64,000 nt of DNA from Escherichia phage vB_EcoM_ESCO8. The notes under the pieces are model-generated. The model searched no databases, was not told the origin of the DNA, and saw nothing but the letters and a program-made list of their open reading frames with translations. Position numbers and translations under genes: made by a program. The first letter of the stretch is position 1. Every line of letters starts with the position of its first letter. Positions 6,834 through 43,006 of this stretch are shown one piece after another. Where the stretch lies: the sequence record OM386653.1, one strand, 5' to 3'.

Positions 6834-7300
6834 ATTACGCCGGATATGAACCTGTTGACATGCTCAACGGTGATGGTGTAAGATGCTCTTTGTGGGTGAG
6901 CGGTTGTAGCCACGGTTGCCGTGGCTGCTTTAACCAGAAAGCCTGGTCGTATAACTACGGACAAGAGTTCACTACTGAAACATTAGATCTTATCTTGAAA
7001 GATTTATCTCGACCTTTCATTAAAGGATTAACAGTTTTAGGTGGTGAACCTCTTGACAAAGAGAACATTGACACTGTAGAGTATGTTCTTGAGAAGGTAA
7101 GAGATTGTTTTGGAAACAAAAAAGATATTGTCTTATATACAGGATATCTTTTTGAAGAAATTCCAGAGAAAATTAAAAAACTGGTTGACATAGTAATAGA
7201 TGGTAAGTATGATATGACTCAACCAACAACGAAACGTTATAGAGGTTCAGATAATCAACGAATGTGGGTTAAGAAAGACAACATTTGGGAATCTGACTAA
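6830..7300 (+). CDS. nrdG: anaerobic RNR activating enzyme (radical SAM), NrdG
   Basis: CSHGCRGC (CxxxCxxC) radical-SAM cluster motif, 156 aa, directly downstream of nrdD; TTG start overlapping the nrdD stop. Confidence 0.85.
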   Translation: MNYAGYEPVDMLNGDGVRCSLWVSGCSHGCRGCFNQKAWSYNYGQEFTTETLDLILKDLSRPFIKGLTVLGGEPLDKENIDTVEYVLEKVRDCFGNKKDIVLYTGYLFEEIPEKIKKLVDIVIDGKYDMTQPTTKRYRGSDNQRMWVKKDNIWESD

Positions 7301-7320
7301 ATTAAATAGAGGAGAAAACT

Positions 7321-8481
7321 ATGTTTACAGTATTCGGCAATCAAATCTTCCTGCGTCAGAAGTCTGGTACAGATATTGAAGAAATTCCAGCAGGAACTTT
7401 TGGTGTAGGTGTTACTCAAAGTGGCGAGTTCTTCCTGTATCCTAAAAACGATATGGAAGTCCCTTCAGTAACATACGGTGATACTGATGATAAATCAGAA
7501 CGTATTATCAAGACGTTCCTTAGCCGCAAAGGTAAAAACACAGGTGTTCTCCTTGAGGGTACGAAGGGTAGCGGTAAAACTTTGCAAGCTAAAATGCTGT
7601 CTTCTGCTCTTCGTGAAATGGGTATTCCTACTATTTCTATCGGTAGTGCTTTTAATGGTGAAGGCTTTATCAATTTTATGTCTAAAATCACACAACCTGT
7701 GATGATTATGATCGATGAATTTGATAAACTGTATGCTGAAAAAGATGCACAGGATGGTTTGCTTACCCTGCTGGATGGTGTTGGTGGCTATGACAAGCTG
7801 TTTGTATTGACTAAAAATGATGGTTATGTATCAGAATTTTTGCGTAATCGCCCTAGCCGTATTTTCTACAGCTTTAACTATAAGAAACTACCTAAAGCTA
7901 CTATGGATGATTATCTGGCTAAAAATCTGGAGAACAAAGCCTTTTTACCAGATTTTGAAACGCTTTATAATCTGTCCGTGGACTTGAACTTTGATATTGT
8001 TCAGTCATTAGTAGAAGAACTTAACCGTTACCCTAATGACAAATTCTCTGATGCACTTGCATTAATGGGTATCAGTATTACTGAACACCGCTATGCTGCA
8101 AAAGAAGTTAAACTTCTGAAAGTTAACGGTGTAGATCGTACAGGAGATGTTTCGGCAGATACCGATATTGACGGTATGACAGCACAGGGTTTGTTTAGCG
8201 GTAATCGTTATGTTGTAGCTGTAGACCATAAGCTAGGAGAAGAGCATCTTCCTGAAATGGAAGGAGTCGTTACCGTAGAAGATAAAGACGAAGAAGGTGA
8301 CTACTACTGGGGTGTAGACCGTATCTTGCTGACGTATGATGAAAAACACATCCGTACAATGGGCGGTGACGGTTATCACTTTATGTTCACCGATGATAAA
8401 GGTAACAACATTGAAGTTGTTATTAAAAACAAAGAACGTAAAAACTACACAGAGTATGTGTTTGGTGGTCGTTCTTACTAA
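7321..8481 (+). CDS. P-loop/AAA-type ATPase
   Basis: Walker A GTKGSGKTLQAK and Walker B-like VMIMIDEFDKL; function not assignable. Confidence 0.6.
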   Translation: MFTVFGNQIFLRQKSGTDIEEIPAGTFGVGVTQSGEFFLYPKNDMEVPSVTYGDTDDKSERIIKTFLSRKGKNTGVLLEGTKGSGKTLQAKMLSSALREMGIPTISIGSAFNGEGFINFMSKITQPVMIMIDEFDKLYAEKDAQDGLLTLLDGVGGYDKLFVLTKNDGYVSEFLRNRPSRIFYSFNYKKLPKATMDDYLAKNLENKAFLPDFETLYNLSVDLNFDIVQSLVEELNRYPNDKFSDALALMGISITEHRYAAKEVKLLKVNGVDRTGDVSADTDIDGMTAQGLFSGNRYVVAVDHKLGEEHLPEMEGVVTVEDKDEEGDYYWGVDRILLTYDEKHIRTMGGDGYHFMFTDDKGNNIEVVIKNKERKNYTEYVFGGRSY

Positions 8482-11113: not shown

Positions 11114-11320
11114 ATGGCAGGTGTTTTAGCAGTATTAGGTTGTTTTATTGTTGTGTTTTTGATTGTGTTAATCCCTAGTTGGCTACTGCTTTTAGCATAC
11201 AACTATATGATTGACATTATCGGCTTAGACTGGCATCATGTTCCTGTAACGTTTTGGAGTGTAGTCTGTGTGACGTTCATTCTTGCGGTACTTCGTGGTA
11301 TCTTTCAATCTAACAAATAA
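11114..11320 (+). CDS. small membrane protein (two predicted TM helices)
   Basis: 68 aa, strongly hydrophobic; AAGGAGA RBS. Confidence 0.45.
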   Translation: MAGVLAVLGCFIVVFLIVLIPSWLLLLAYNYMIDIIGLDWHHVPVTFWSVVCVTFILAVLRGIFQSNK

Positions 11321-12677: not shown

Positions 12678-12884
12678 ATGGTGGTTTTACGTGTTCTTTG
12701 GATTCTGTTTGAAAATATTTGTTTTGCTCTAGGTTTGTTTTGTTTGATTTTTATCTTGACAACATATATTGATAACCATACAATTACTATCAACAGGAAC
12801 GGAGAACAGATGTATTGTTTCTCTAGGGATTTTAAAAATTGTGTTGAGATTTTAAATGAGAGGGTTACAAATGAAAAACATTAA
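12678..12884 (+). CDS. hypothetical small membrane protein (uncertain)
   Basis: 68-aa hydrophobic ORF behind GAGGTGA; overlaps the lipoprotein start. Confidence 0.25.
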   Translation: MVVLRVLWILFENICFALGLFCLIFILTTYIDNHTITINRNGEQMYCFSRDFKNCVEILNERVTNEKH

Positions 12885-13461
12885 ATCTTTTATTGTTGCA
12901 GTTGTTTTAGGTAGTGCATTGCTGGTAGGTTGTGATGATTCTGAAAATGTACAAAATCAACGTTACCAACAAACACCAAATCAGATGGTAGATGAACAAT
13001 ATGTAAATCAGCCTGCACCTCAAGTTGTTCAAGCAGCACCTGCACAACCTTCAACAGTTGTTGTGCAAGGAGGCGGCAGTGGTTCTTCTGGCGTAGGTGA
13101 GTTTGCTACAGGTATGCTTCTTGGTCATATGTTGAGTGGTAATAGTGGCGGTGGTGGTTATAGAGATGGCGGTAGCAATACAACAATTATCAATAACAAC
13201 GCTGCTCCTACAACTAATAGTAAAGCATATACAACACAAAAGCATAGGTTTTATGATAAACAAGGGAATACATATACAACCACTAAACAAAACACAATTA
13301 AGCAGCAAAGTGTACAAACGTATTCACGCCCATCAACAACAAAAGTGAATAGTGATTACTCTGCTCGTAAGTCTTACTCAAGTCCTATTAGCTCTTATAG
13401 TAAGTCTTCGAAAAGTTATTCTTCGTCGAAACGTAGTTTTAGTAGCTCACGTCGTCGTTAA
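12871..13461 (+). CDS. lipoprotein with glycine-zipper-like segment and Ser-rich C-terminus
   Basis: Signal peptide MKNIKSFIVAVVLGSALLVGC with lipobox LVGC; Gly-rich stretch GGGSGSSGVGEFATGMLLGHMLSGNSGGGG; start at ATG 12871. Confidence 0.6.
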   Translation: MKNIKSFIVAVVLGSALLVGCDDSENVQNQRYQQTPNQMVDEQYVNQPAPQVVQAAPAQPSTVVVQGGGSGSSGVGEFATGMLLGHMLSGNSGGGGYRDGGSNTTIINNNAAPTTNSKAYTTQKHRFYDKQGNTYTTTKQNTIKQQSVQTYSRPSTTKVNSDYSARKSYSSPISSYSKSSKSYSSSKRSFSSSRRR

Positions 13462-14416: not shown

Positions 14417-15520
14417 ATGTCCAGTCCTTTTATCAGTGCCGTAAAAAGCAAACCGTCTGAAATGAGTGTATTCACGGCAACAACAGAAAAAAGTAAGTCT
14501 TTGTTTGCTCCAACTGCTATGGATGCAAGTCCTGTATATGCCCCTGCTGTTGCACGACCTGTACAAATGCTGCCTCCAATGTCTCGTGAAGAGATTGAAC
14601 AGGTTGGTGCTGATGCAGGACTTACTCTTCGTAACCTTAATGCTGAAGTGCTTAAACACCAGCGTTCATCTCAGGGAGATGAAATGAGTGAACGTTTAAC
14701 TGCGCTTATTAAGCAAGCAAAGCAACTTGATCCTAACTCTATTAAACAATCTAAAGGTTTAGGTAAACTAGTTAAGAAAGTTTTAGGTATGAAAGAAGAT
14801 TTGTTTGGAGAATTTGACACCATCAATAACCGTATTGAAGGTTTGGTAAAGACACTCCAAACAGACTTGAAAAAAGAAGAAGATTCTTTACGATATCTGC
14901 AACGTTTAGAAGAGGCTATTGCAAAATATGCCCTTAGTTTAAACAGGGATATAGAGCTTCTAACAGCTACTTATGAAAAAGAAGAAATTCGCCTTAATAC
15001 ACTGCCTGAAAATGAGGTAGAAGAGCGTCAACGTACTCGTGATACTATGGATCTGCTTGAAATTCGTATTGCAGACCTGAAAGCCTTACGCTTACTATGT
15101 GTTCAGATGGGGCCACGTGTACAAAGTATGCAGAAAGTATCTGCAAGTTTGATGCGATCAGCCCGTAATATTGTGAATAATGTTATCCCTGCTTACTCTG
15201 CAAACTTTTCTATGCATATTGAAAGTCTACGCCAGAAGAAAGCAGCCGATACACAGAACAATGTACTAAATGAATTTAATGCTGCTATTGCAATGGGTAG
15301 TGATTTGGCTGCACAAAACCAAATTGAAGCTACACAACTTGCTAATCGTCAAGTATTGGATATTGAAACATTACGTCGTGATCAAGAAAACTTGGTTAAA
15401 ATGTTGGAAGAAACTAACCGAATCAACACTGAAGCCCGTGCTGCTCGTATTGATTACATTCAAGAAGTGCAATCTCTTGAAGATGGTATGATTCAAACTG
15501 TTAAACGTGGTCTACTTTAA
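14417..15520 (+). CDS. TelA-like (toxic anion resistance family) protein, tentative
   Basis: 367 aa, largely alpha-helical/coiled-coil, size and neighbourhood with TerC, TerD and vWA genes fit TelA; no diagnostic motif confirmed by eye. Confidence 0.4.
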   Translation: MSSPFISAVKSKPSEMSVFTATTEKSKSLFAPTAMDASPVYAPAVARPVQMLPPMSREEIEQVGADAGLTLRNLNAEVLKHQRSSQGDEMSERLTALIKQAKQLDPNSIKQSKGLGKLVKKVLGMKEDLFGEFDTINNRIEGLVKTLQTDLKKEEDSLRYLQRLEEAIAKYALSLNRDIELLTATYEKEEIRLNTLPENEVEERQRTRDTMDLLEIRIADLKALRLLCVQMGPRVQSMQKVSASLMRSARNIVNNVIPAYSANFSMHIESLRQKKAADTQNNVLNEFNAAIAMGSDLAAQNQIEATQLANRQVLDIETLRRDQENLVKMLEETNRINTEARAARIDYIQEVQSLEDGMIQTVKRGLL

Positions 15521-15533
15521 GGAGAAATATATT

Positions 15534-15740
15534 ATGAATATTAAAATTTACAAACTGTCTGGTTCTATGATTGCTGTTCAGTATGATAATGAAGATCGTT
15601 ATGTTCTCCTCCAGGATGCTTGGTTAGATGATCCTAATGTATTCACTGTCCTGCGAGAACTACGTTCTGTCTATACCTATTCTTCTAAAGATGGTTTTGA
15701 CAATTCAACGATGGAATTGGTAAAAGAGGAGAATGTGTAA
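15534..15740 (+). CDS. hypothetical small protein
   Basis: ATG 15534 behind AAGGAGA. Confidence 0.4.
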   Translation: MNIKIYKLSGSMIAVQYDNEDRYVLLQDAWLDDPNVFTVLRELRSVYTYSSKDGFDNSTMELVKEENV

Positions 15741-15940
15741 TGAGTAAAGATATTCACTTAACTCGTGAAGAATTGCAAACCATTATGGAAGATGCTTTCA
15801 TTGATGGTTGGAAACAAGGTCAAGAATCAGATTGGTATGATGCCGAAGATTTTTTGTATTATCATATGACTGCACCTGTAGACGAGCAAACACACTCTGA
15901 AACAACTTTGGCTTTAATTGATCTTAAGGCTGGTGTATAA
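15740..15940 (+). CDS. hypothetical small acidic protein
   Basis: 66 aa; carries motif LTREELQTIMEDAFIDGWKQG shared with the next ORF. Confidence 0.4.
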   Translation: MSKDIHLTREELQTIMEDAFIDGWKQGQESDWYDAEDFLYYHMTAPVDEQTHSETTLALIDLKAGV

Positions 15941-16503
15941 TGGGGTGTTTTAGTTTCTTGTGCAAAGAGTCTGGTAATGCTGCTCTTTCTACCTCTTTTG
16001 ATGGCTCTCCTTGCTACCTATTTCTTTTGAAAGGTGGTAAGGTTGTCGAAGAGATGTATGGGAATTATGATAGCTATGGTAGTGTTTTCTCTAACGAAGA
16101 AGATAAACATGGCAATCGTAAAAGATTTAAGTGGTCTATGCCTTGGGAAGAAGTTTGTAATTTGATGTTCTCTTCCGATCTTGGAGATGGGATTGCTCTG
16201 GTATTAGAAGAGCACTTTACAGGTGAGATCCCAACAGAAAGATCTGAAGAAGATCCTAACCAGGGTTGGGGTGATGGAGAAGAAGATCCAGATTGCTTCT
16301 TCAACACTGAAAATAATAAATTTAAACGTGTTGACAATCCTTACCACAAAGTGCATAATACTTGCATTGAGACAGAAGAAGACTCAAAGCTAGAAATTGA
16401 AGATGATTTAGTTGTAACTATCTCTTTAAACGAGTTGCAAAAAATCACTAGAGAGGCTTTCTATTTAGGTTGGAAAGTAGGTAAAGGAGGAGATAGTGCT
16501 TAA
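15940..16503 (+). CDS. hypothetical acidic protein
   Basis: 187 aa; C-terminal LNELQKITREAFYLGWKVG echoes the motif of the upstream ORF. Confidence 0.45.
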   Translation: MGCFSFLCKESGNAALSTSFDGSPCYLFLLKGGKVVEEMYGNYDSYGSVFSNEEDKHGNRKRFKWSMPWEEVCNLMFSSDLGDGIALVLEEHFTGEIPTERSEEDPNQGWGDGEEDPDCFFNTENNKFKRVDNPYHKVHNTCIETEEDSKLEIEDDLVVTISLNELQKITREAFYLGWKVGKGGDSA

Positions 16504-16765
16504 ATTTAATATCAAAGACGACAAATCAGATGAACCTAAATGTTTTGGAGAACTTGACGTAGGTGATACATTTGTATATTATGTTGCCTATCAAGATTCT
16601 GGTTTAGATACGTTCAGAAACTTAGTGTTTATTAAAGTTAATACAAACCAAGCAATGTGTCTGAACGGTTCGCAAAGAGGTCAACTTAGCTGTATTTCGT
16701 ATGATACAGAAATGGTAGAAGTGGATTTAGAAGTTACTAACATTACACTCAGAAAGGAGAAATAA
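16496..16765 (+). CDS. hypothetical protein
   Basis: GTG start behind AAAGGAGGA; 89 aa. Confidence 0.4.
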   Translation: MLKFNIKDDKSDEPKCFGELDVGDTFVYYVAYQDSGLDTFRNLVFIKVNTNQAMCLNGSQRGQLSCISYDTEMVEVDLEVTNITLRKEK

Positions 16766-16766
16766 T

Positions 16767-17561
16767 ATGTCCAATAAAATCAGTCTTAAAAAACGTCAAG
16801 AAACTCTTACCGTATCTCTGCGTAAGAAAAAGATTAACGATGTTGTTCTTCGTGTCGGTAGCGCCTTAGATATTTCGGGTAGTATGTGTGAGCTGTATCG
16901 TGATGGCACTGTTAGTGATTTTGTAGGTAAGCTACTGCCGTTTGGTATGAAGTTTGATGATAATGCACAGATTGACATGTGGGCTTTCAATAGTTCTTCT
17001 TTTGAACTGCCTCCTGCAACGGCTGATGTATATGATGATTATGTCGGCTCTTGTATGTCTAATGTTTGCATCAATGGTGGTACAGCTTATGCTCCAGTAA
17101 TGCAAGAGATCTATGATACATACTTCGGTAGTGTACCTATGAAAAATATTACACGCGAAGTCGTTGAGTATGAAGAAGTTCCGGCTAAGGGTTTCCTTGC
17201 TAAACTAACTGGTAAAAAAGAACGTGTAGAAGTTACACGTACTGTTGTAGAACAGGTTGTAGATACTGATGCACAAGTTGATCGTACTCCTGCAATGATT
17301 TTCTTCCAAACTGACGGGGAGAACATGGATACTTCAGCAGTACGTAGTTTGCTGAACAAACACCGCAACACTCCTGTTTACTGGTTTATGGTTGGTGTAG
17401 GTAATGCAAACTTTAAATTCCTGAAAGACTTGGCAAAAGAATACGATAACGTTGATTTTATCGGTATTGCAGATTTGTCCTTGTCTGACGAAGAACTTTA
17501 CGATAAACTGCTATCCGAAGAGTTTGGCGAGTGGGTTAAAAAATTTGGAGCAAAAGCGTAA
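16767..17561 (+). CDS. von Willebrand factor A (vWA) domain protein, TerY-like
   Basis: MIDAS-type motif ALDISGSM (DxSxS) near the N-terminus; 264 aa. Confidence 0.6.
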   Translation: MSNKISLKKRQETLTVSLRKKKINDVVLRVGSALDISGSMCELYRDGTVSDFVGKLLPFGMKFDDNAQIDMWAFNSSSFELPPATADVYDDYVGSCMSNVCINGGTAYAPVMQEIYDTYFGSVPMKNITREVVEYEEVPAKGFLAKLTGKKERVEVTRTVVEQVVDTDAQVDRTPAMIFFQTDGENMDTSAVRSLLNKHRNTPVYWFMVGVGNANFKFLKDLAKEYDNVDFIGIADLSLSDEELYDKLLSEEFGEWVKKFGAKA

Positions 17562-17568
17562 AAAACGC

Positions 17569-17596
17569 TTGACTTTGTAGAAAAGATTAGTAAAAT
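17569..17596 (+). promoter_or_regulatory. sigma70-like promoter (TTGACT-16-TAAAAT) driving the TerD gene
   Basis: -35 at 17569-17574, -10 at 17591-17596. Confidence 0.5.
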
Positions 17597-17633
17597 AGAC
17601 AACGTAAATTAACAACAAAGGAGATAATAAATT

Positions 17634-18230
17634 ATGACTCAGAAAATTTCCCTGAAAAAAGGTTCTAGCGAAAAAGTTTCTCTGAAAAAGATTGCACCAG
17701 CACTGAAACGCATTCGTCTGGAATTCTCTTGGAAATCTAACGAAAAACTGGATCTGGATGTTAGTGCTCTGATTTGCCGACACAATGCATCTGGTCTGCC
17801 GGAACTGTTGTCTCCTCGCCACCTGGTATGCTACGCACAGAAATTTGATCCTGAACGTTCTACTTTTGCAGGTGAAGATGTTCGTGACGGTGTAGGACAA
17901 ATGGAGCAGATTGATGTTACACTGGATAATATCTCTGCTGAAGCACAGGAAATTGCATTCGTAATCACTATTGATGACGAAACGGGTAAGAAACGCCTTG
18001 GTCACGCTACCGAAGGTTTCCTTAAAATCTTCGATGATGAACGTAACGTTGAACTGCTGGATTTTGACTTCTTGGCTCCAGAACTTGCAGGTAATACCAT
18101 TTGCCACGTTGCCTCCCTGGTGCGGGAAGATAGCGAATGGAAACTGAAAGCATATGGTGTAGGTAAAGCTGGACTTGACATTTATGATGTAGTTAAAGCG
18201 TTTGGCGCTGGCGACGATTGGTTCGAGTAA
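17634..18230 (+). CDS. TerD-domain protein
   Basis: N-terminal ISLKKGSSEKVSLKK, LDLDVSALI, GEDVRDGVG and C-terminal WKLKAYGVGKAGL blocks characteristic of TerD; strong RBS AAGGAGA; codon choice strongly biased to CTG/CGT/GGT/GAA/AAA. Confidence 0.8.
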   Translation: MTQKISLKKGSSEKVSLKKIAPALKRIRLEFSWKSNEKLDLDVSALICRHNASGLPELLSPRHLVCYAQKFDPERSTFAGEDVRDGVGQMEQIDVTLDNISAEAQEIAFVITIDDETGKKRLGHATEGFLKIFDDERNVELLDFDFLAPELAGNTICHVASLVREDSEWKLKAYGVGKAGLDIYDVVKAFGAGDDWFE

Positions 18231-18239
18231 TAAATCATA

Positions 18240-18262
18240 GCGCCCTTCGGGGCGCATATTTT
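18240..18262 (+). terminator. intrinsic terminator (gcgccc-TTCG-gggcgc) plus T-rich tail
   Basis: Perfect 6-bp GC stem with TTCG tetraloop followed by atattttaaat. Confidence 0.7.
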
Positions 18263-18282
18263 AAATAGAAGAGGAGAAAACA

Positions 18283-18885
18283 ATGGGTATTACTTTAGAA
18301 GGTCAAAAACTTATTCGCAGCGGTAATTTTCTTGTGGATATTGACAACAATGAAGATTATGCTTTAGAAGTTAGTGATGTACTGTTTAATGCTTTGCAGT
18401 CTGGTTTCAATTTTGAAGTTTATGAAGTAATCCGTGGAACTAAACTCAGAGAAACCCTTGGATCAACTAGTGATGTTTATTCTGCGATCTGGCAATATTT
18501 CGGGTTAATGGATGGTAAGACATACCTTACTGATAGTTATTCTGAAGATGTTGTTTATCTTGATATGGAAGAGTTTCGTCGTCTGTTCAAAAGTGAAGAA
18601 AATGAAGAAGAGGGTGAACTTTTTGAAGGAATTACTCTCGAAGGTAATGTTGAAATTGTGTATAAAGCAGGAAAAACATTCCACTTGCGTGAAAACGGTA
18701 AAGCAAAAGTTGATTTTGTAAACAAGACAGTAACAACTGAACATAATTATCTTAAAGATGGTCAACCAGCTTTTGAACGTGTAACAATTAAATTTAAAGT
18801 ATTGTCTGCACTAGTTACGGATCAAGAACGTATTGATTTTGTAGAAGATGGTGTAGTAACTCATACAAAGGTTTACAACATCTAA
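18283..18885 (+). CDS. hypothetical protein
   Basis: 200-aa ORF behind GAGGAGAAAA; internal echo GITLEG appears twice. Confidence 0.5.
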   Translation: MGITLEGQKLIRSGNFLVDIDNNEDYALEVSDVLFNALQSGFNFEVYEVIRGTKLRETLGSTSDVYSAIWQYFGLMDGKTYLTDSYSEDVVYLDMEEFRRLFKSEENEEEGELFEGITLEGNVEIVYKAGKTFHLRENGKAKVDFVNKTVTTEHNYLKDGQPAFERVTIKFKVLSALVTDQERIDFVEDGVVTHTKVYNI

Positions 18886-18917
18886 CAGGGTGTAAGAGGG
18901 GGATAATCCCCCTCCAC

Positions 18918-18946
18918 TTGCAAAACAGCCTCTTCTGTGTTACAAT
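18918..18946 (+). promoter_or_regulatory. sigma70-like promoter (TTGCAA-17-TGtTACAAT, extended -10)
   Basis: -35 at 18918-18923, TG at 18938-18939, -10 at 18941-18946; upstream of the SleB-like hydrolase gene. Confidence 0.5.
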
Positions 18947-18977
18947 AAAAGTTCGTTTAACAAAATAGGAGGCAAGT

Positions 18978-19487
18978 TTGTCAATAAAAACCTTTGTCGC
19001 AATTGCGTTACTATCCTTAACTGCTTTTACATTTACACCTGTTGTGGCGCAAGCCGAAGCTGCAAACGTAAAAACTGCTAAAGTAGTTCACAAGTGTACA
19101 AAGCGTGATAGTAAAGAAAATCTATTAGCTTGTGCAATCTATGCAGAAAGTCGTAATCAAGGAAAGCGAGGTATGTCTGCTGTTGGTAATGTAGTATTGA
19201 ATAGGGCTAGAGATTCATATTTCCCTGATACTATAAAAGAAGTTTTGTTTCAAAAAGGACAATTCTCTTACACAAAGACATTCAACGTTATGGAACGTGA
19301 TAAGTGGAAGGAAGCTAAGACTATAGCAGAACGTCTACGTTATCTCGATACGCATTTTCCAGAATTACGAATTGCATTAGATATTACAAAAGGAGCATTA
19401 TACTTTAAAAAATCTACAATAAGAGCACACTGGGAAAAAGATATGGTTCTAGTGTACCGCTACAAAGAACATCAATTCTATCGCTAA
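18978..19487 (+). CDS. secreted cell-wall hydrolase, SleB/CwlJ (Hydrolase_2) family
   Basis: Signal peptide ending VVAQA; conserved blocks LLACAIYAESRNQGKRGMSAVGNVVLNRA and VLFQKGQFSYT; TTG start behind AGGAGG. Confidence 0.65.
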   Translation: MSIKTFVAIALLSLTAFTFTPVVAQAEAANVKTAKVVHKCTKRDSKENLLACAIYAESRNQGKRGMSAVGNVVLNRARDSYFPDTIKEVLFQKGQFSYTKTFNVMERDKWKEAKTIAERLRYLDTHFPELRIALDITKGALYFKKSTIRAHWEKDMVLVYRYKEHQFYR

Positions 19488-19497
19488 GGAGATATAG

Positions 19498-19776
19498 ATG
19501 AAAGATGGCGTTATCGTTGCAAGTTATCTTGTTATTGGTCTTACAGAAGAGGATGTACATTACATTAGGAAACATTTAGAACAGTTTGCAATGATGTTCA
19601 TCGAAGACGAAGACAATATGGATGTTTATTCAATTGAAATGATCAATGATAACGTCTATCCTTGTATAGCTTTACGAGTCGATGAAGATGTTTGGGAACG
19701 TTTTTCACGTAGTCACGATAATGTTGAATGTTCTATGGTTATGTCACAAAGCAACATACTGGGAGTGTTACACTGA
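19498..19776 (+). CDS. hypothetical small acidic protein
   Basis: 92-aa ORF behind AGGAGA. Confidence 0.45.
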   Translation: MKDGVIVASYLVIGLTEEDVHYIRKHLEQFAMMFIEDEDNMDVYSIEMINDNVYPCIALRVDEDVWERFSRSHDNVECSMVMSQSNILGVLH

Positions 19777-20006
19777 TGGCTGATGTTATTGAAGTTAACT
19801 TTAAAACAAAAAAGAAAGTTGATAAGTATACAATCTTAAAAAATATTTGCGTTGTGTGCTTCAATTCTGTAATATATGACTCACGTAAGGGCGAAAATGA
19901 AAATGAACCTTACATCCAGATTTCTAAAGGTAAAGGGCAGTGTATCTGCAAAAACTGTGCTGTAGCAATTAAGGAGGTTGTAGATGAAAACCATTGGGAT
20001 CAATGA
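19776..20006 (+). CDS. small zinc-ribbon protein
   Basis: CVVC ... CICKNC four-Cys pattern; ATG overlaps the upstream stop (TGATG). Confidence 0.4.
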   Translation: MADVIEVNFKTKKKVDKYTILKNICVVCFNSVIYDSRKGENENEPYIQISKGKGQCICKNCAVAIKEVVDENHWDQ

Positions 20007-20178
20007 TACTGGCGAAGTTGTAAAATCTTGGGATGATCTTAGTGGTATCCCTACAGATAAATTGATTAAACTGCGTGATGTTTGTCGTGATCATCTTAAT
20101 GAAACGTATAAAGAGTATATGGAAGCACGAGATCACAGTTTAGCTATCCAAATGGAACTCGCAAAACGTAATCAATAG
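19984..20178 (+). CDS. hypothetical small protein
   Basis: 64-aa ORF behind AAGGAGG. Confidence 0.4.
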   Translation: MKTIGINDTGEVVKSWDDLSGIPTDKLIKLRDVCRDHLNETYKEYMEARDHSLAIQMELAKRNQ

Positions 20179-20235
20179 GTAAAACCATTTAGACTTTTTA
20201 GTCTAAAAATGCTAAAGTAATAATACGGAGGGAGT

Positions 20236-20799
20236 ATGATATTTCACATAACTCCCTATCTTTCTGGAGATATTGGAAAAGGTATCAATGACACAATAAG
20301 TGTCTTACCAGAAGATAGTTGGATTTGCCTAAGAGACATTGATACAATGTTTCTTCTTCCAGAACAACCTGCTTGGCTGGAATCAATAGTCCGTTCAAAT
20401 CCTGATTTTGATGTTCTTGGTGCATCTTGTAATAGATTGGGATCAACATATCAATTATTTAATAATGAAAGAAGTGAAGATCCGAATATACTACACCACA
20501 TTGAGATTGCAAAAAGAGCACATCTAGAATGGGGAAACTCAATAGAGGAAGTACCTACAGATGCTATCTTAGCAGGATTCTTTCTTCTCTTTCGTAAGAG
20601 TCTGTGGAATGAAATCCCTTTTGAGGAAAGATCAATACAGTTTGATATAATTTTCTCTAAAGCATTGCACGCTAACAATAAAAGGCTAGGTTTACTACGT
20701 GGGTTATATTTATTTCACACATACCGTTTAGGTAATGATGATCCTAGAAAAGCTATTTCACACCTTTTACATTGTCAAGACATGAATAAAATTATTTAA
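20236..20799 (+). CDS. hypothetical protein, possibly nucleotide-sugar transferase-like
   Basis: DxD-like LRDIDTMF; AT-rich codon usage; assignment weak. Confidence 0.3.
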   Translation: MIFHITPYLSGDIGKGINDTISVLPEDSWICLRDIDTMFLLPEQPAWLESIVRSNPDFDVLGASCNRLGSTYQLFNNERSEDPNILHHIEIAKRAHLEWGNSIEEVPTDAILAGFFLLFRKSLWNEIPFEERSIQFDIIFSKALHANNKRLGLLRGLYLFHTYRLGNDDPRKAISHLLHCQDMNKII

Positions 20800-20808
20800 G
20801 GAGTTATT

Positions 20809-21495
20809 TTGGAAAATACAAAAATTGGTGTTGGTGTTATTACTGTAGGTAAGCGTCCTCTTAAAGATTATCTTGTGACTGATCCTAATGCTACTTTTGT
20901 TGTACAGTATGATCGGGAGCGAAAAGGTGTTGCATATGCTCGTAATGAACTGATGAAAAAGTTTTATGATGAAGGGTATGATTACTGGTTTATTTTTGAT
21001 GATGATTGCTATCCTGTTGTTCAAGGTTGGGAAACATATTTTGTAAAACAGGCGAAGGAAAATGGTTGGGATTTCTTTGGTATGCCTGAATACTTTAAAG
21101 ATAAAGTAAAAGGTATTGAAGGGGAAGTGGTTATTTGGGAACTAGGTATGTGCCAGTTTGGTATGTATTCCCGTGCAGTTATTGAGAAAGCTGGCTATTT
21201 CCGCTCATACACCCACGGTTATGGATATGAAGATGCAGAGTGGATTCATCGCGTTCCACTGGCAGGTTTGAACCGAGGTATTCAAGGCGTGCCATGTCCT
21301 ATTCGAATTATGGCGTTTATCCATCCTGATGATGTATTTGGAGACAATCCTTTACCTTTTGCGAATCTGTCAAAAGAAGAGAAAGAACAGGGGATTGGTG
21401 TAAACTGGGAACAATATAAACAATCCTTGGAGGATCTTCGCAATGGTAAAACTTTTATCTCTTATGAGGAGGCTCAAAAATATGGTAAATCCTAA
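20809..21495 (+). CDS. glycosyltransferase, family 2-like (GT-A fold)
   Basis: Pattern GVAYARNELMKKFYDEGYDYWFIFDDDCYP matches the GT2 block (ARN...G.dY..f.DdD); TTG start behind AAGGAG. Confidence 0.5.
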   Translation: MENTKIGVGVITVGKRPLKDYLVTDPNATFVVQYDRERKGVAYARNELMKKFYDEGYDYWFIFDDDCYPVVQGWETYFVKQAKENGWDFFGMPEYFKDKVKGIEGEVVIWELGMCQFGMYSRAVIEKAGYFRSYTHGYGYEDAEWIHRVPLAGLNRGIQGVPCPIRIMAFIHPDDVFGDNPLPFANLSKEEKEQGIGVNWEQYKQSLEDLRNGKTFISYEEAQKYGKS

Positions 21496-23693: not shown

Positions 23694-25466
23694 GTGTCTT
23701 ATGTTGTAAATAAATATGGGTATAACATTGATCTAAGTCAAGAAGGACATACTGGGTGTCCTCGTTGTATGAAAGGAGGGCGTGATCGATCACAAAACAA
23801 TTTGATGGTATATGGCTTAGATGCCGATGAAGACCATCGAGGCGCACATTGTTTTTCTTGTGGCTTTACTATCCCTGATCAAAAATGGTTAAATGCACAC
23901 GGCGAAGAAATTGAAGAGGAGGATATCTTGGGTAGTGAGTTTAATCCAGAAGTACATGATAAACTAAAAGCCAGCACTGGAACTAATCCAAAAGGTTATC
24001 GCGGTATTCGTGAAGATATCTCTAAGCCTTTCGGTGTACGTTATATGTACGATGAAGCTACTGGCGAAGTAATTTCAACACTATACCCTACAACTAAAGA
24101 TTACAATATTGCTGGGTATAAACAACGTATCGATCCAAAAGATTTCTCGCATCCTATCGGTGAAACAGGAAAGGATTGTGATCTTTTTGGGGAGTTTAAA
24201 TATCGTAACCACAGCGGTACTATTCTAATCGTTGGTGGTGAACACGATATGCTGGCTGCAACACAGATGCTAAAAGATTATAACAAGGGTGGTAAATATC
24301 CTGTTCCTGCTGTAGTATCTGGTACTTGTGGCGAAACATCTCTGCATAAGCAGCTTCAACATCGTTATAAATTCTTAGATCAATTTAAAAAGATTGTTCT
24401 ATGTATGGATAATGATGAAGCTGGACGTGCAGCAGTTGAGAAATGTGTTAAAATCTTACCACGTAATAAAGTTTACGTGATGGAACTAACGGATGTTAAA
24501 GATCCTAACCAGGCACTAGTAGAAGGAAAAATTGATCATTTTATTGATCGCTTTTTCAAAGCTAAATTGTACACACCTGCTGGTGTTTACGCTTCTAACG
24601 TACTGTATGAAGCAGCCTTGGAATGCCTGGAAGCTAAAATGATCACCCTTCCTCCATTCATGCGTGTTGCTTCTAATATGTTAGGTGGAGGCTTGGTAGA
24701 AGAAGAAATTACTGTTATACTTGCAAAAACAAGTATCGGTAAGACACTGTTGGTTAACGAGATTACAAAGCACATTATTCTTGCACATCCAGAACATACT
24801 CTTGGTATTTTATCTTTGGAGGCAACGTATAAGAAGTATTCTCGTAACTTACTGTCTTCATTCTTGCATATCCCTCTTCACCGTAAAACGAAAGAAGAGA
24901 AGGAAAAGATTTTAAAAGATAATGAAGAAAAGATTCGTGATTTTTACGAACGAGAAGATGGAACACCACGTTTCTATGTTTGTGATGATCGTGGAGCTAA
25001 CGTAGATGTGATTAAAGAGAAGGTTCTGGAAATGATTATTTATTTCGGAGTAACCATTCTTGTTATCGACCCTTATTCTGATTTGCTTTCTGGTATGGAC
25101 GTGTCACAACAAGAGGAACTTGCGACGTGGCTGAAACGCATTATGAAAGAGTATGCAATAACCATTGTTGTAATTTCACACGTTAAAAAGTCTTCTAACA
25201 ATAGTAATGAACATATTGTAGAAGATGATGCAATGGGTAGTAGCTTCCTTGCTAAAGGTGCTGGTATCACAATTGCGCTGGAGCGTGATAAACAAGCTGA
25301 AGATCCTATGGAACGTAACCGCACATATTGCTACATTCTAAAGAACCGTGAGTTCTCAGAGACTGGTGCAGCAGGTAGTTTCTTCTATGAGATTAAAACA
25401 GCTACACTTCACGATTACGATCAATACACAAGTAACCCAGAGAACATCTCTGCTGGTTCTTATTAA
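23694..25466 (+). CDS. bifunctional DNA primase/helicase (T7 gp4-like)
   Basis: N-terminal zinc finger CPRCMKGG...HCFSCG, TOPRIM-like acidic blocks ILIVGGEHD / LCMDNDEAG, DnaB-type Walker A LAKTSIGKT and Walker B LVIDPYSDL; GTG start behind AGGAGA. Confidence 0.85.
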   Translation: MSYVVNKYGYNIDLSQEGHTGCPRCMKGGRDRSQNNLMVYGLDADEDHRGAHCFSCGFTIPDQKWLNAHGEEIEEEDILGSEFNPEVHDKLKASTGTNPKGYRGIREDISKPFGVRYMYDEATGEVISTLYPTTKDYNIAGYKQRIDPKDFSHPIGETGKDCDLFGEFKYRNHSGTILIVGGEHDMLAATQMLKDYNKGGKYPVPAVVSGTCGETSLHKQLQHRYKFLDQFKKIVLCMDNDEAGRAAVEKCVKILPRNKVYVMELTDVKDPNQALVEGKIDHFIDRFFKAKLYTPAGVYASNVLYEAALECLEAKMITLPPFMRVASNMLGGGLVEEEITVILAKTSIGKTLLVNEITKHIILAHPEHTLGILSLEATYKKYSRNLLSSFLHIPLHRKTKEEKEKILKDNEEKIRDFYEREDGTPRFYVCDDRGANVDVIKEKVLEMIIYFGVTILVIDPYSDLLSGMDVSQQEELATWLKRIMKEYAITIVVISHVKKSSNNSNEHIVEDDAMGSSFLAKGAGITIALERDKQAEDPMERNRTYCYILKNREFSETGAAGSFFYEIKTATLHDYDQYTSNPENISAGSY

Positions 25467-36318: not shown

Positions 36319-38733
36319 TTAAGCATTATTGACAGTAACAAAAGTAACAGGATTCAGAGCTTTAATTTGTGTATTCTCTGCTGTAGGTGTTACAATTGGA
36401 TCTGCAATATCTATTGTGTACAAACTATTTGTCACGTATGTAGCACGTGCTATAGTTGTCACAAGATCGCCGCCATTTGCACCTGCACCTGGAATAACAA
36501 TCTTAGTACCTGCTGCTTTAGCGTAGCCATTACTAGCCCAGTTTAAAGCATTAGACTGTAGATAGGTTTGACCTGTAACAGTTGCTTTTATTTTCTCGTT
36601 GGCACTAAAGAAAGCACCACCTACTGTAACAACATGTTTTTTACCGCTTGCACAATGAATAACTGTTCCAGTAGGGAATTCACGCCCACCTGGGAATTCA
36701 TCATAAGCTGTAAAATATTGTTCAGAAATAGTAGTTAAAACTGGCCCACGATGACCTGTACCATCAACAGCAGTTGGAACACCAAAGTTATTTCCAACCT
36801 GATCGCAACGATCAGTGTAGATTTTAGCAAAAGAAACTGTTGTTTCATCTCCGCTAAGTGCTGTACATCCTACCCACTTCATATACGTGAATTGGCTGCG
36901 AGTATAGAAACCGCCACCACTTCCTTCTCCGCTTCCGTGTTGACCAATAAAGTCAATACTACGGCAACGAATATTATTAAAGGTAGAGCTAGATGGTAGC
37001 CCACGCCATTTAAAAACATTACAATTGATGTTACTAACAATTGTAGAGTTTTCCCAGGCATCTGATCCAGCCGTTGCAATCTCAATTGAAGATTCTGGAA
37101 TATCCAAATTCTTAATTGTAAAGTTAATTGGTGGCCCCGCATATCTTCCACTGTTAACACCCCAGTCAATAAAGACCATGCGTGTTGAAACAGACGGATC
37201 ATTAAGCAGATAACCAGTTAAACCATCAACTTCAAAATCTTGGCATCCGTATAATGCAACACCACAAGTAGTTAAACCTGTACCTGTTGAAACTGCTGTG
37301 TTAGGATAAACTTCGTTATCACGTATTGTGAAGTTTTTACCCATTTCAACGTGTAGACATTGACGGCAATTGTAAACCCTATTCCCAACGATACTGAAAT
37401 TACGTACATATTGTGAGTCAGGAACATCAACACCATATGGGCCACTACCTGCTACACCAATACCAATACCCCAGTTTGCCCCTTGTCCAGAAGCATCTAC
37501 GTTAGCAATGTGGTTATTCTCGATAATCAAACCTTCAGTGTAGTGTTTTTGAACTACGTTAAGTTCAATAGCATCACCTTTAATATCGTGAATATAGTTG
37601 TTAGAGTAACGCCCGTAGGTCATTACTTCTCCAGTACCTTGTTGCAGGATCGCATATTTACAACCATACATTTCGTTGTAACTGAAGTCCAACGTACCTT
37701 CACTTGTCATTGCTTGCATTAAGAATGCTGCTGTAGATGTTGCGTTGGAGAAGATATTACGATAGAATCGGCAATCACCACCTAACATCTTAACATAACA
37801 TTTTTCAAAGCGAACGTTTTCCATCCAACAGGACACAGTAGAAATCATTGTTCCACCGTTACCAGTGAATGTACCACCATACCAACGAATACCAGACATA
37901 GCAATTGAGCTTGTGAATCTATAATTCTTATCTGCACGTACTTGAATGTTATTCGTGTTAGCGAAAGTAATAGTTTTTAAAATTGCTTGAGTATCATCGG
38001 TAACTCCATCACCAATTGCACCAAACTGCTCAGGCGTTACAAAGTATTGAGCTTGTAACAGGTTGCCTCCAGATGGAAGACCAACCATTGCTGCACCAGT
38101 GGTAGATGACAAAAGGTTTTTCTCTACGTAAGAAGTAGAGGCTGTTGTTTTACCAATAAAAGCAAACAATTTGTTAGGTAGACCAGTAGACGGATCTAAA
38201 CCTAATGGTTCTGCCAGAATAATTTTACTATCTCTGATAGTAAATGCTTCACCTTGAATCTGAATTACACCGTTAATGGTGACAATAGCATTATCAAAGA
38301 TATAAGGAGGACTGATTTCTGTTTCATATCCTGTAGCACCTTTAAAATACCAAGGATACACATCTGAAGCTAACTGTTCAGTTTTAAGAGCGTATAGAGT
38401 CCAGTTACTGTCTCCTACAGGTGTACCCTGCATAGGTACAGGGTTCGCAGTAGTGGCAGATGGGGCATAATAGTACCCACTCAAGATACCGTTTTCAAAA
38501 TAACGTAACTGGTTAAATACAGTTTCAGTTGATCCTGCTGACCAAGCAACAGGACTCTTAAAGAAGAAGTTATCAACAAGTGCTTTACGCAGTGTAGGTA
38601 TTAAACCTGTTTCGGTTTCTACAGTTGCTGTAGCATCTCCATTAATAACATCATGCATCTGGTTAGACGAGAATATAACAAGATCAACACCTTGTTCTAG
38701 TGTCGTAGCAGGATATGTTGGAAAATTCGCCAT
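36319..38733 (-). CDS. tailspike-like protein (probable right-handed beta-helix, depolymerase-like)
   Basis: 804 aa; long central region rich in Asn/Gly/Thr with periodic hydrophobic repeats typical of pectate-lyase-like beta-helices; fold assignment is inference. Confidence 0.45.
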   Translation of the reverse strand: MANFPTYPATTLEQGVDLVIFSSNQMHDVINGDATATVETETGLIPTLRKALVDNFFFKSPVAWSAGSTETVFNQLRYFENGILSGYYYAPSATTANPVPMQGTPVGDSNWTLYALKTEQLASDVYPWYFKGATGYETEISPPYIFDNAIVTINGVIQIQGEAFTIRDSKIILAEPLGLDPSTGLPNKLFAFIGKTTASTSYVEKNLLSSTTGAAMVGLPSGGNLLQAQYFVTPEQFGAIGDGVTDDTQAILKTITFANTNNIQVRADKNYRFTSSIAMSGIRWYGGTFTGNGGTMISTVSCWMENVRFEKCYVKMLGGDCRFYRNIFSNATSTAAFLMQAMTSEGTLDFSYNEMYGCKYAILQQGTGEVMTYGRYSNNYIHDIKGDAIELNVVQKHYTEGLIIENNHIANVDASGQGANWGIGIGVAGSGPYGVDVPDSQYVRNFSIVGNRVYNCRQCLHVEMGKNFTIRDNEVYPNTAVSTGTGLTTCGVALYGCQDFEVDGLTGYLLNDPSVSTRMVFIDWGVNSGRYAGPPINFTIKNLDIPESSIEIATAGSDAWENSTIVSNINCNVFKWRGLPSSSTFNNIRCRSIDFIGQHGSGEGSGGGFYTRSQFTYMKWVGCTALSGDETTVSFAKIYTDRCDQVGNNFGVPTAVDGTGHRGPVLTTISEQYFTAYDEFPGGREFPTGTVIHCASGKKHVVTVGGAFFSANEKIKATVTGQTYLQSNALNWASNGYAKAAGTKIVIPGAGANGGDLVTTIARATYVTNSLYTIDIADPIVTPTAENTQIKALNPVTFVTVNNA

Positions 38734-39074
38734 TAATTTTTGTCCTTACTTTGTGTGCGCTTTGTAATCTCCTCTAGCATTAATTGAACAGGAGCATTTT
38801 TTAAATCCATTATTTTTTCAATCTTCTGTTCTAAGGCAGTATTATTTGCCATTAATGTAGAGTTGATCTGGTTAAGCATTTGAGCAAGTTCTGCTTTGGT
38901 AGCATAAGTGGATTCAACAAACACCAACTTCTTTTCTAGTTCGCGGTATTTGTCTTCCATTTTATCCAAATCACTTGCCATATCATCTATCTTCTGTTTG
39001 AAGACCACCCAGATTACGCCAATAAGAGGGATAATCGCCTCTTTAGCGATATCCCATACTTCTGTTAGCTCCAT
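38733..39074 (-). CDS. membrane-anchored coiled-coil protein (function unknown)
   Basis: N-terminal hydrophobic segment AIIPLIGVIWVVF then charged coiled coil. Confidence 0.35.
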   Translation of the reverse strand: MELTEVWDIAKEAIIPLIGVIWVVFKQKIDDMASDLDKMEDKYRELEKKLVFVESTYATKAELAQMLNQINSTLMANNTALEQKIEKIMDLKNAPVQLMLEEITKRTQSKDKN

Positions 39075-41273: not shown

Positions 41274-42761
41274 TTAGACTCCGTACTCGTAGGAAATATT
41301 ATCAAGGTCAAAGGATGGTACAACATTGTACGCTGGAGTGATATCTCCCTCATTATATTTACTGTCATCCTCAGTATTAAGTTTAACATAAACACGGAGA
41401 GAAGTCAAGCGTCCGAACGCAAGTGCAGAATAAATTACACCTTTTATCTGATCGTTAGTTACTGTTGACCCTAGCTCAAAATAAGCCTGTAAGTTTGCAA
41501 GAGCAGAAACAATATTTTCCCTTTCTGTTGTACTTAGCACACTACCATTGCCAGTTTGATACACCAGTTTAAGTGAATATTCAGCATTGTCACCAGGAGA
41601 AAAACGAATTACTTCTTGACCGCCATCTTCTGTTACGATAGTAATTGCTGTTGTACCATAGGTTAAGGTGTTAATAGGCTTAGTATTATAAATAACCTGT
41701 GCAACTTCTTCTGCTGTACCACCATACACAATAGTCTGGAATGTCATAGCTGGAGCATGTTCCTGATCATGTAATGTAGGGTTATCATAAATCTTAACCT
41801 TTGTCACACCATCTGTCAGTAGCAGAGCTTTAACAATAGCAGCACGAGTAGCAGCATTAGCTTCATCCATATTATCATTGAAACGAGAACGGAATTCTGC
41901 ATCTGTTTCAACATCTGTACCTGGAGAGAATGGATAGAAGTTACCTGTATCTAAAAAGCCTGTAAACGTTGAAGAAATACCTGTGATACTTTCTGTACCT
42001 ACTGGATTATAACCAACGTCTGAACACGTAACTGGAATTTCACTCCATTTTGTACCAATTGCAATAGATGCGTAAAATTTCACTGGTGTTACTAGACCTA
42101 TTGGGTTAACATTATCTTCTGGATTATAACCCATATAAACATTACTAGCATCATTCCATACTAAAGCACGATCTGTTGTTGATACGTTAGCTTTAATGAA
42201 ATTCGTGAGATCTAAAATAAAGTTTGTATTGCTAGGACTTAATGTTTTACTGTTAAGACCACCATCAATAGCACTTTGAATGTAGAAAGTAATAGAAGTT
42301 TCACCAGAAGCTGTTGCGTTTGCTTTAGAAATGGTGTATGCTCCAATCTTAGCATTCAACATTGTTGGTGCACTGATATAATATGTCAAATCGTTATCGG
42401 CATTAAAATAAACATCTGTGCTTAGTTCATAAGTCCAAGCTGCCTTATTGTTAGATTTAACATAAGCATAACCACTACCAGCAGAAGCAGCTTTACGATA
42501 AAAACCTCTTTTAGAGAAGATTTCATCAAGGTAAATACCTTCTGCACCATCTAAGGTTTGGGTATTGTAAACACCTTGCATACCTTCCCAAAGGGTGTAA
42601 TCTGTATATGCAATAATACGAAACAGTTGACCAAAGACAGTATCTTCAGATGTAGCTGTATCTGCACCGAAAGTGTTTTTCAATGCTGTCATATAATTAT
42701 TTAAAATATCATCAAACGTTGGAATTACAAAACCAGCATCTGTTAAACCATAATCTGCCAT
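41274..42761 (-). CDS. baseplate/tail structural protein (unassigned)
   Basis: 495 aa; translationally coupled to the upstream small ORF (TAATG overlap). Confidence 0.35.
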   Translation of the reverse strand: MADYGLTDAGFVIPTFDDILNNYMTALKNTFGADTATSEDTVFGQLFRIIAYTDYTLWEGMQGVYNTQTLDGAEGIYLDEIFSKRGFYRKAASAGSGYAYVKSNNKAAWTYELSTDVYFNADNDLTYYISAPTMLNAKIGAYTISKANATASGETSITFYIQSAIDGGLNSKTLSPSNTNFILDLTNFIKANVSTTDRALVWNDASNVYMGYNPEDNVNPIGLVTPVKFYASIAIGTKWSEIPVTCSDVGYNPVGTESITGISSTFTGFLDTGNFYPFSPGTDVETDAEFRSRFNDNMDEANAATRAAIVKALLLTDGVTKVKIYDNPTLHDQEHAPAMTFQTIVYGGTAEEVAQVIYNTKPINTLTYGTTAITIVTEDGGQEVIRFSPGDNAEYSLKLVYQTGNGSVLSTTERENIVSALANLQAYFELGSTVTNDQIKGVIYSALAFGRLTSLRVYVKLNTEDDSKYNEGDITPAYNVVPSFDLDNISYEYGV

Positions 42762-43006
42762 TAATTATCCTCCTTATCAGGGGCAGGTGATCTGCCCCAA
42801 CGTAAATCTATTAAATTCTTCATTAGTCTGGATGGTGTGATCATAAAAACAAAAGCCCAGCCCATCCATTCAGGAATTTCTTTATCAATTCCCAAATAAA
42901 TAAACATACTGGACATAACAATCATACCAATAGCATTCCAAACTTTAGTAGAACTGACTTTATTATCAGGATATGTACAGAACATACCTATTAAAAATTT
43001 TCTCAT
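42761..43006 (-). CDS. small membrane protein (two TM segments)
   Basis: 81-aa hydrophobic ORF; contains the RBS AAGGAGG of the next gene. Confidence 0.4.
   Translation of the reverse strand: MRKFLIGMFCTYPDNKVSSTKVWNAIGMIVMSSMFIYLGIDKEIPEWMGWAFVFMITPSRLMKNLIDLRWGRSPAPDKEDN

Follow-up and report, generated by a model that had tools for sequence, protein, structure and literature searches.

A predicted Sec-exported SleB/CwlJ-type cell-wall hydrolase as a possible accessory lysin of phi92-like coliphages

Introduction

SleB and CwlJ of Bacillus are the reference enzymes for the Hydrolase_2 type of cell-wall hydrolase. [quoted passage not shown] Proteins with a SleB-like domain are also encoded by phages, in which they are found together with other lysis genes. 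In Vequintavirinae, a separate lysozyme or peptidase is encoded as well, and spanins adjoin the terminase gene (PMC7344957, PMC3606486, PMC12210895), and in rV5 the lysozyme-family protein gp89 (Phage_lysozyme) was named as the lysin (PMC3606486). For the SleB-like homologue of Pectobacterium phage CB7 a signal peptide was reported, and the protein was described as toxic when expressed in E. coli (data not shown), while Cronobacter phage CR3_087 was said to be implicated in lysis (PMC7344957). In T5-like phages the endolysin is an M15 peptidase adjoining the holin (PMC11180984, PMC3326045), and in PAK_P3 the putative endolysin is gp28, followed by ORFs which were treated as holin/spanin candidates (PMC5563952). 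The SleB-domain protein of PA5oct was not detected in virions (PMC7318152), and the phi92 virion structure paper does not mention the homologue gp170. For a Phapecoctavirus, the presence of two lysins is already on record (PMC10793346; also PMC12210895). Our literature search yielded neither transcriptome nor experimental papers that address when a phage SleB-like protein is made or how active it is.

Two further types of phage lysin reach the wall compartment via Sec and without a holin pore, as represented by Lys44, a Sec-exported endolysin from Oenococcus phage fOg44, and by Lyz of P1, a SAR endolysin. Here, the gene of a predicted exported SleB/CwlJ-type hydrolase from a phi92-like phage was compared with these systems. 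The gene lies in a 64,000-nt stretch of DNA which was analysed as a whole and is called the window below; coordinates refer to the window, and features are on the + strand unless marked otherwise.

Results

The source of the window was examined by database comparison. At positions 17000-21000, identity was 100% with Escherichia phage outra, 99.5% with ALITA, and 98-99.7% with about 50 further Justusliebigvirus isolates (Stephanstirmvirinae, phi92/phAPEC8 group). The top match of positions 61000-64000 was VEcB (99.7%), and for positions 39001-64000 the best database coverage was just 91%, at 98.9% identity. Judged by these matches, the window's phage belongs to the Justusliebigvirus species cluster and is a mosaic in its tail-fibre region. 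Since different parts of the window matched different records, genes outside it could be described via stand-ins only, and outra (MN850645) and ALITA (PP359570) were adopted as close ones; the lysis genes outside the window reported below were thus seen in these sibling genomes and not in the window's own genome.

The hydrolase is encoded at 18978..19487 as a protein of 169 aa, which is predicted to be exported and to cleave peptidoglycan by a SleB/CwlJ-type (Hydrolase_2) domain. No in-frame start is possible ahead of the TTG at 18978, and a Shine-Dalgarno sequence AGGAGG (18967..18972) lies 5 nt upstream of it and was present in all six aligned relatives; the phi92 record marks a ribosome-binding site at this AGGAGG. 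The records of phi92, phAPEC8, ALITA and outra contain the identical ORF with the identical start, and the TTG codon and Shine-Dalgarno sequence were conserved in the relatives examined. The ORF is a real gene. It is the same gene as gp170 of phi92 (98% identical) and gp067 of phAPEC8 (74%), and in phi92, phAPEC8, ALITA and outra the gene has the same TTG start, the same ribosome-binding site and the same place between a gp171 homologue and small ORFs followed by glycosyltransferase genes. The phi92 and phAPEC8 genes also share the promoter and hairpin described below. No difference of substance was found. The gene is named Phi92_gp170 in phi92, "putative cell wall hydrolase" in outra, and "endolysin" in ALITA, alia and phAPEC8 (gp067). 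Gene and annotation are already public, about 130 related coliphages being annotated with it.

The family assignment was supported by sequence profiles and by structure prediction. Residues 61-168 matched Pfam Hydrolase_2 (PF07486) over profile positions 2-100 of 100, with a score of 70.1 bits (cut-off 27; E=2.7e-19). The protein also matched PHROG 938 "endolysin" (E=1.9e-20) and, at E about 1e-5, the catalytic domains of SleB (4f55, 4fet). The AF2 model had a mean pLDDT of 83, with residues 33-169 mostly above 90 and residues 1-32 below 50. In a Foldseek search of this model, 4fet and 4f55 were the top PDB entries with a probability of 1.00, and the superposition with 4fet_B gave a target-normalised TM-score of 0.77 and an rmsd of 2.3 A over 132 columns; SleB catalytic domains were the sole significant PDB matches, the next unrelated one having E >2. 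The predicted catalytic glutamate, Glu57 in the motif YAESR (codon 19146..19148), aligned with the Glu of the SleB YGESRGE motif in 4f55 and 4fet and was invariant in 162/162 homologues. Arg76 was likewise invariant in this alignment, and Asn75, Gln95, Phe96, Trp152 and His165 were nearly so. The original prediction of a SleB-type hydrolase with conserved SleB/CwlJ blocks was thus borne out by the profile match, the invariant Glu57 and the fold.

The fold of the catalytic domain and the invariant Glu are shared with Bacillus SleB and CwlJ, and the single-domain layout is shared with CwlJ. With the SleB equivalog model of NCBIfam (TIGR02869), the hydrolase scored 51.1 bits against a cut-off of 236.5, covering only model positions 81-199, which is the catalytic part. 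No PG_binding match was obtained in the Pfam search of the hydrolase, in contrast to SleB with its N-terminal PG_binding_1 domain. Given the score far under the cut-off and the lack of the N-terminal peptidoglycan-binding domain, a SleB orthologue was ruled out, and the protein is, from its domain content, a CwlJ-like single-domain enzyme plus an export signal. It also differs from the Bacillus enzymes in lacking both a spore context and a YpeB or GerQ partner, and its substrate would be ordinary Gram-negative murein.

Residues 1-26 (18978..19055) have the features of a Sec signal peptide, with a predicted cleavage AQA|EA. The n-region MSIK is followed by the h-region TFVAIALLSLTAFTFTPVV, with a mean Kyte-Doolittle value of 1.95, and then by A24-Q25-A26|E27. 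The h-region has 19 residues, a G+A+S+T fraction of 0.42 and no Gly; a Pro is placed at -6, and the segment contains no Cys and hence no lipobox. Among homologues with as little as about 35% identity, a small-x-small site was kept while the residues themselves varied, the variants being AQA, ATA, VYA, VHA, ALA, SLA, AHA and VQA. The Pro ahead of the site was also kept across homologues. A hydrophobic N-terminus was found in 140/169 retrieved proteins, a set made up of close relatives and the best-scoring family representatives, and the rV5-like and T5-like homologues likewise possess one. These results agree with the Sec signal peptide (...PVVAQA) proposed from the sequence earlier: the n-, h- and c-region features and the conservation of the site were all seen, and the cleavage itself is predicted by sequence rules. 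After this cleavage the mature hydrolase would have 143 aa and a pI of 9.8.

Just before the catalytic Glu, a C-x11-C pair is formed by Cys40 (19095-19097) and Cys52 (19131-19133), spanning 19095..19133 and flanking the start of the catalytic helix. Both residues were nearly invariant in the closest clade and recurred in distant exported homologues. In most other family members of the 162-homologue alignment, the Cys pair is placed at positions 49 and 87. Such conserved pairs fit an oxidising compartment, i.e. the periplasm, and a putative periplasmic disulfide Cys40-Cys52 is suggested by the alignment.

Upstream of the gene, a sigma-70-type extended -10 promoter is located at 18918..18946, comprising TTGCAA (18918-18923), a 17-nt spacer, TG (18938-18939) and TACAAT (18941-18946), from which transcription would start near 18953. 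A promoter scanner gave 9/12 matches with the TG present. In 14 kb, 56 promoter-like sites were counted versus 46 +/- 6 expected, so the motif in one sequence was not above chance. Its conservation was therefore evaluated in five divergent orthologous intergenic regions, namely those of phi92, phAPEC8 and three metagenomic relatives (all but phi92 with a protein identity of 61-74%). The key positions, i.e. TTG of the -35 box, TG, and TA and the final T of the -10 box, were invariant (8/8), compared with 10/45 of the other columns from the -35 box to the Shine-Dalgarno sequence (Fisher p=5e-5). The spacer was always 17 nt, and the aligned regions followed the pattern TTGCnn-17-TGnTAnnnT. This conservation indicates that the promoter is very probably functional without any phage factor, and the element TTGCAA-17-TGtTACAAT was found exactly as originally described. 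Sites of the form TTG-N17-TGnTAnnnT numbered 14 versus 5 expected; a repeated promoter family of this form was rejected, as most of the other sites were inside coding sequence by eye. The motif CTAAATACCC, a late-promoter motif of rV5/PVP-SE1-like phages, gave 2 matches versus 4 expected in a one-mismatch search, and a search for the late-promoter motif TATAAATA gave 6 matches versus 6.5 expected, none of them near the hydrolase gene.

A GC-rich hairpin (GAGGGGG-ATAAT-CCCCCTC, 18896..18914) follows the upstream stop (18885) and abuts the -35 box. A 34-nt stretch containing the hairpin folded with -17.3 kcal/mol (z=-3.9), and the corresponding regions of four relatives, each folded separately, gave -14.9 to -16.9 kcal/mol with differing stem and loop sequences. 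The hairpin was not reported by the terminator scan because no T run follows the stem. Although it lacks a U-tract, the upstream transcript probably ends at this hairpin. Downstream, the next ORF begins after a gap of 10 nt from the hydrolase stop, and no terminator-like site was detected by the scan on the + strand between 19487 and 25438. Given the short gap and the lack of a terminator, the promoter probably drives a multi-gene unit consisting of the hydrolase, three small ORFs (19498-19776, about 19776-20006 and 19984-20178; none with membrane segments or a family assignment) and then glycosyltransferase genes. In this way, the earlier statement that the hydrolase has its own promoter held for the conserved promoter itself, which probably serves the whole unit and not the hydrolase alone.

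The surrounding genes on the + strand encode TelA, vWA, TerD, glycosyltransferases, a primase-helicase and DNA polymerase, with the TelA/vWA/TerD genes on one side of the hydrolase and four glycosyltransferase genes on the other. In one relative, L014, the glycosyltransferases are missing. The ORFs flanking the hydrolase had no membrane segment and no lysis-family match. A location among early/middle genes, here represented by replication and metabolism genes, and the lack of an adjoining holin or spanin had been noted earlier, and both were supported. A holin was sought by scanning all six-frame ORFs for membrane segments; the candidates 42761-43006(-), 11114-11320(+), 12678-12884(+) and 38733-39074(-) were compared with PHROGs and Pfam, and no small membrane protein matched a holin family.

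Separate lysis genes were detected in the sibling genomes. Outra and ALITA encode a soluble T4 e-type lysozyme of 166 aa (Pfam Phage_lysozyme, E=5e-12) which has no hydrophobic N-terminus. It was 52% identical to T4 lysozyme, and its Glu/Asp/Thr aligned to E11, D20 and T26. Immediately upstream of TerL, the large terminase gene, an overlapping Rz/Rz1-type spanin pair was found, in which the i-spanin (phrog_4297, 1.9e-40) combines a TMD at its N-terminus with a coiled coil and the o-spanin is a lipoprotein with the lipobox LMMTG|C (phrog_1267, 2e-20), its ORF being unannotated in outra. By tblastn, the e-type lysozyme and the spanins were absent from the window. The lysis genes of outra and ALITA are scattered as in T4 and form no cassette. 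A separate holin-endolysin-spanin cassette together with a lack of lytic activity of the hydrolase had been named as the finding that would speak against the original reading. Of this, the other lysis genes, namely the lysozyme and the spanins, were seen in the siblings. For the SleB-like gene, 54 matches at 95-99% identity and 77 at 60-80% were counted, and for the e-type lysozyme 55 at >=95% and 77 at 60-90%. From these nearly equal counts, it seems that the two wall enzymes occur in the same ~131 Stephanstirmvirinae records and that both are core genes of the subfamily.

A SleB-like domain was detected by tblastn in 1142 phage records. The Vequintavirinae homologues (CB7_83, Cronobacter phage CR3_087, PVP-SE1 gp243 and MaxBurger bas54_0065), about 40% identical to the window's hydrolase, resemble it in having a signal peptide, a single Hydrolase_2 domain and the C-x11-C pair. 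In rV5-like phages, the SleB-like gene has the same Cys pair but a GTG start and directly precedes rIIA/rIIB, and in CB7 it is overlapped by a 2-TMD holin-like ORF (PMC7344957), whereas no such ORF is present in the window. The "cell wall hydrolase SleB" of T5-like phages (DaisyDussoix bas31_0078, AKFV33 ORF81) is likewise an exported single-domain Hydrolase_2 protein of the early region, but it shows ~35% identity over the catalytic domain only, an ATG start and the Cys pair 49/87 instead of 40/52. The Nankokuvirus homologue (LSL4) has genes for DNA ligase, dCMP deaminase and DprA around it. In rV5-, T5- and PAK_P3-like phages, the combination of a separate endolysin with an exported SleB-like enzyme encoded outside the structural region thus recurs.

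Discussion

The protein departs from a canonical cytoplasmic endolysin, as a hydrophobic segment and an AXA site are present at its N-terminus and its gene has no holin/spanin linkage. A virion-associated lysin was also rejected, the gene being a stand-alone 169-aa ORF in a replication and metabolism block. We consider it about an even bet (probability roughly 0.5) that the gene product is an accessory Sec-exported periplasmic lytic transglycosylase and not the main lysis enzyme. The lytic transglycosylase chemistry on E. coli murein is suggested by the SleB-type catalytic domain. SleB itself requires muramic-delta-lactam in the spore cortex, so action of the phage enzyme on ordinary E. coli murein is an assumption.

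It is unlikely that the hydrolase is the principal endolysin, exported through Sec with a signal peptide as is Lys44 of fOg44 and held inactive until the proton-motive force is lost through a holin or pinholin, with the e-type lysozyme being redundant or otherwise used. Such a role would be in line with the exported muralytic domain indicated by Pfam, signal features and fold, with the label "endolysin" given by RefSeq/Pharokka-type records and PHROGs, and with the implication of CR3_087 in lysis, the toxicity of the CB7 homologue and the overlapping holin-like ORF of CB7 (PMC7344957). However, a complete e-type lysozyme with its catalytic triad is equally conserved, apparently in the same ~131 genomes, no holin-like ORF adjoins the gene in the window, and the T5-like and PAK_P3-like phages with an exported SleB-like gene keep a separate endolysin beside holin or holin-candidate ORFs. 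Lys44 and P1 Lyz share the Sec route to the wall compartment with the hydrolase, but they are the endolysin of their phage and belong to different catalytic families, whereas a soluble e-type lysozyme is also encoded here. The earlier idea of a holin-independent signal-peptide endolysin therefore retained its exported hydrolase and the missing holin neighbour, and was weakened as to the main-lysin role by the e-type lysozyme and spanins of the siblings. Tethering by an uncleaved SAR domain, with the enzyme inactive until released on depolarisation as in P1 Lyz and phage 21 R, is very improbable. In its favour, Ala, Ser and Thr make up a fair share of the 19-residue h-region, the N-terminal hydrophobic segment of the Nankokuvirus LSL4 homologue is longer and shows no obvious cleavage site by eye, and in surveys of lysins from Gram-negative phages predicted signal peptides are taken to indicate SAR export (PMC8223927). 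Against this, the small-x-small site with its upstream Pro is maintained among homologues with otherwise varying residues, no Gly-rich stretch is present, and the G+A+S+T fraction is below 0.53 of P1 Lyz and 0.63 of R21.

A role outside lysis is also doubtful, in which the enzyme would be an early/middle periplasmic wall remodeller of an envelope-modifying block with Ter-type proteins, a lipoprotein and glycosyltransferases; loosening of the sacculus for cell enlargement, a change of murein against superinfecting phages, or recycling of muropeptides are possible functions. The host-type promoter that requires no phage factor, the position between TelA/vWA/TerD and the four glycosyltransferase genes, the conserved weak TTG start, and the location of the homologues next to rIIA/rIIB in rV5-like phages and in the early region in T5-like phages would agree with it. 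This evidence is drawn from context, however, and the neighbourhood varies between lineages, as illustrated by L014. Gene position also does not fix the timing of expression, and T4 gene e is itself located among early genes. Taken together, an earlier or auxiliary role in the wall seems to fit the comparative picture better than that of a holin-independent main endolysin, because the gene is found in early/replication regions of rV5-, T5- and PAK_P3-like phages, which also have a different endolysin.

For the accessory lysin, the following course of events may be proposed. Unmodified host RNA polymerase would transcribe from the conserved extended -10 sigma-70 promoter, with the hydrolase at the head of a transcription unit that lies within the replication and envelope-gene block; with a host-type promoter, transcription can begin early and independently of a holin. 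The conserved weak TTG start would keep the enzyme dose low. The product would be exported through the Sec pathway, signal peptidase would remove the first 26 residues, and the mature enzyme would build up in the periplasm of infected E. coli, probably stabilised by the Cys40-Cys52 disulfide. The pre-positioned accessory lysin might then nick or thin the host sacculus, and the final lysis would be carried out by the soluble T4 e-type lysozyme, via a putative holin, together with the Rz/Rz1-type spanin pair. This division of labour between two wall enzymes is a conjecture. An early-exported wall enzyme should carry a risk of premature lysis, and the weak start codon is the sole safeguard seen.

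For annotation, the gene is better labelled as an exported SleB/CwlJ-type cell-wall hydrolase than taken for "the endolysin". A T4 e-type lysozyme and a spanin pair are likewise encoded by these phages. As a small, basic, single-domain enzyme it could be of interest for lysin screening. The current understanding of phage lysis is unchanged, and the two-lysin layout is already published. Several unrelated virulent coliphage groups keep an extra exported murein-cleaving enzyme in their early/replication regions. A tentative explanation, which we regard as somewhat unlikely, is that exported SleB-like transglycosylases form a widespread early/middle class in unrelated virulent phages, devoted to a programmed change of the sacculus and not to terminal lysis. 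If so, the class would span phi92/phAPEC8-like, rV5-like, T5-like, PAK_P3-like and some jumbo phages, each with its own endolysin, and its job would be to condition the wall for abrupt lysis, to block superinfection or to support envelope remodelling. In the phi92/phAPEC8 clade, the host-type promoter and the weak TTG start would then set a low, early dose of the enzyme.

Genes and hairpins upstream of the SleB-like gene

A Ter-type stress-response cluster was observed directly 5' of the SleB-like gene (18978-19487, + strand), which encodes the predicted exported Hydrolase_2 enzyme of this virulent coliphage. The cluster occupied 14417-18230 on the + strand and continued further upstream, and comprised genes for TelA (14417-15520, +; Pfam match 5.7e-34), a vWA/TerF-like protein (16767-17561, +) and TerD (17634-18230, +; match 5e-28). 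In the sibling genome ALITA, a TerC membrane protein was annotated farther upstream than these three genes. Also upstream of them, a predicted lipoprotein of 201 aa with the motif MRGLQMKNIKSFIVAVVLGSALLVG-C was encoded at 12856-13461 (+; phrog_21570).

Strong GC hairpins separated consecutive genes of the block upstream of the SleB-like gene. The hairpin at 18240-18255 (GCGCCCTTCGGGGCGC) was followed by a T-rich tail, and that at 18896-18914 (GAGGGGGATAATCCCCCTC) carried no T run. The latter directly abutted the -35 box of the SleB-like gene promoter, and comparison of the orthologous regions revealed that its position was kept in relatives while its sequence varied.

Candidate holin and spanin genes

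A gene within the tail-fibre module (42761-43006, - strand; phrog_1322, 'membrane protein') encodes an 81-aa product that contains two hydrophobic segments and ends in a charged C-terminus. This protein gave no match in the Pfam search and is a possible class II holin. A holin-like topology has also been mentioned for an 81-residue protein of the related phage BME3 (PMC12210895). Further small membrane proteins were encoded by two 68-aa ORFs of the early or metabolic block, one with two strongly hydrophobic segments (11114-11320, +; phrog_16065) and one with a single such segment (12678-12884, +; phrog_17591).

A 113-aa protein (38733-39074, - strand), composed of an N-terminal membrane segment and then a coiled coil, lacked a lipobox despite its annotation as 'lipoprotein', and was weakly matched to the Rz-like spanin family phrog_739 (E=5e-4). 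Its gene is flanked by tail-fibre genes. Outside the window, an o-spanin ORF of 109 aa with the lipobox LMMTG-C (phrog_1267, 2e-20) was detected in the sibling genome outra (6996-7325 of sequence stretch L006, corresponding to about 23995-24324 of MN850645). The ORF and the 3' end of outra_39, the i-spanin gene, overlap, and the outra record leaves the ORF unannotated.

Relationship to other phages and cysteine pairs of the enzyme

Judged by sequence comparison, the phage is a mosaic Justusliebigvirus isolate, because the structural half of the window (39001-64000) had no complete match among database phages (the best covered 91% at 98.9% identity), while 17000-21000 was 100% identical to outra. 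A difference probably lies in the tail-fibre genes.

In the alignment of 162 homologues, the exported Hydrolase_2 proteins contained either of two alternative conserved Cys pairs. The pair at positions 40/52 was found in the clade of the window's SleB-like protein and in rV5-like phages. Of the remaining aligned homologues, most carried the pair 49/87, as did the T5-like sequence examined. These alternative pairs suggest two independent disulfide solutions for a periplasmic enzyme.
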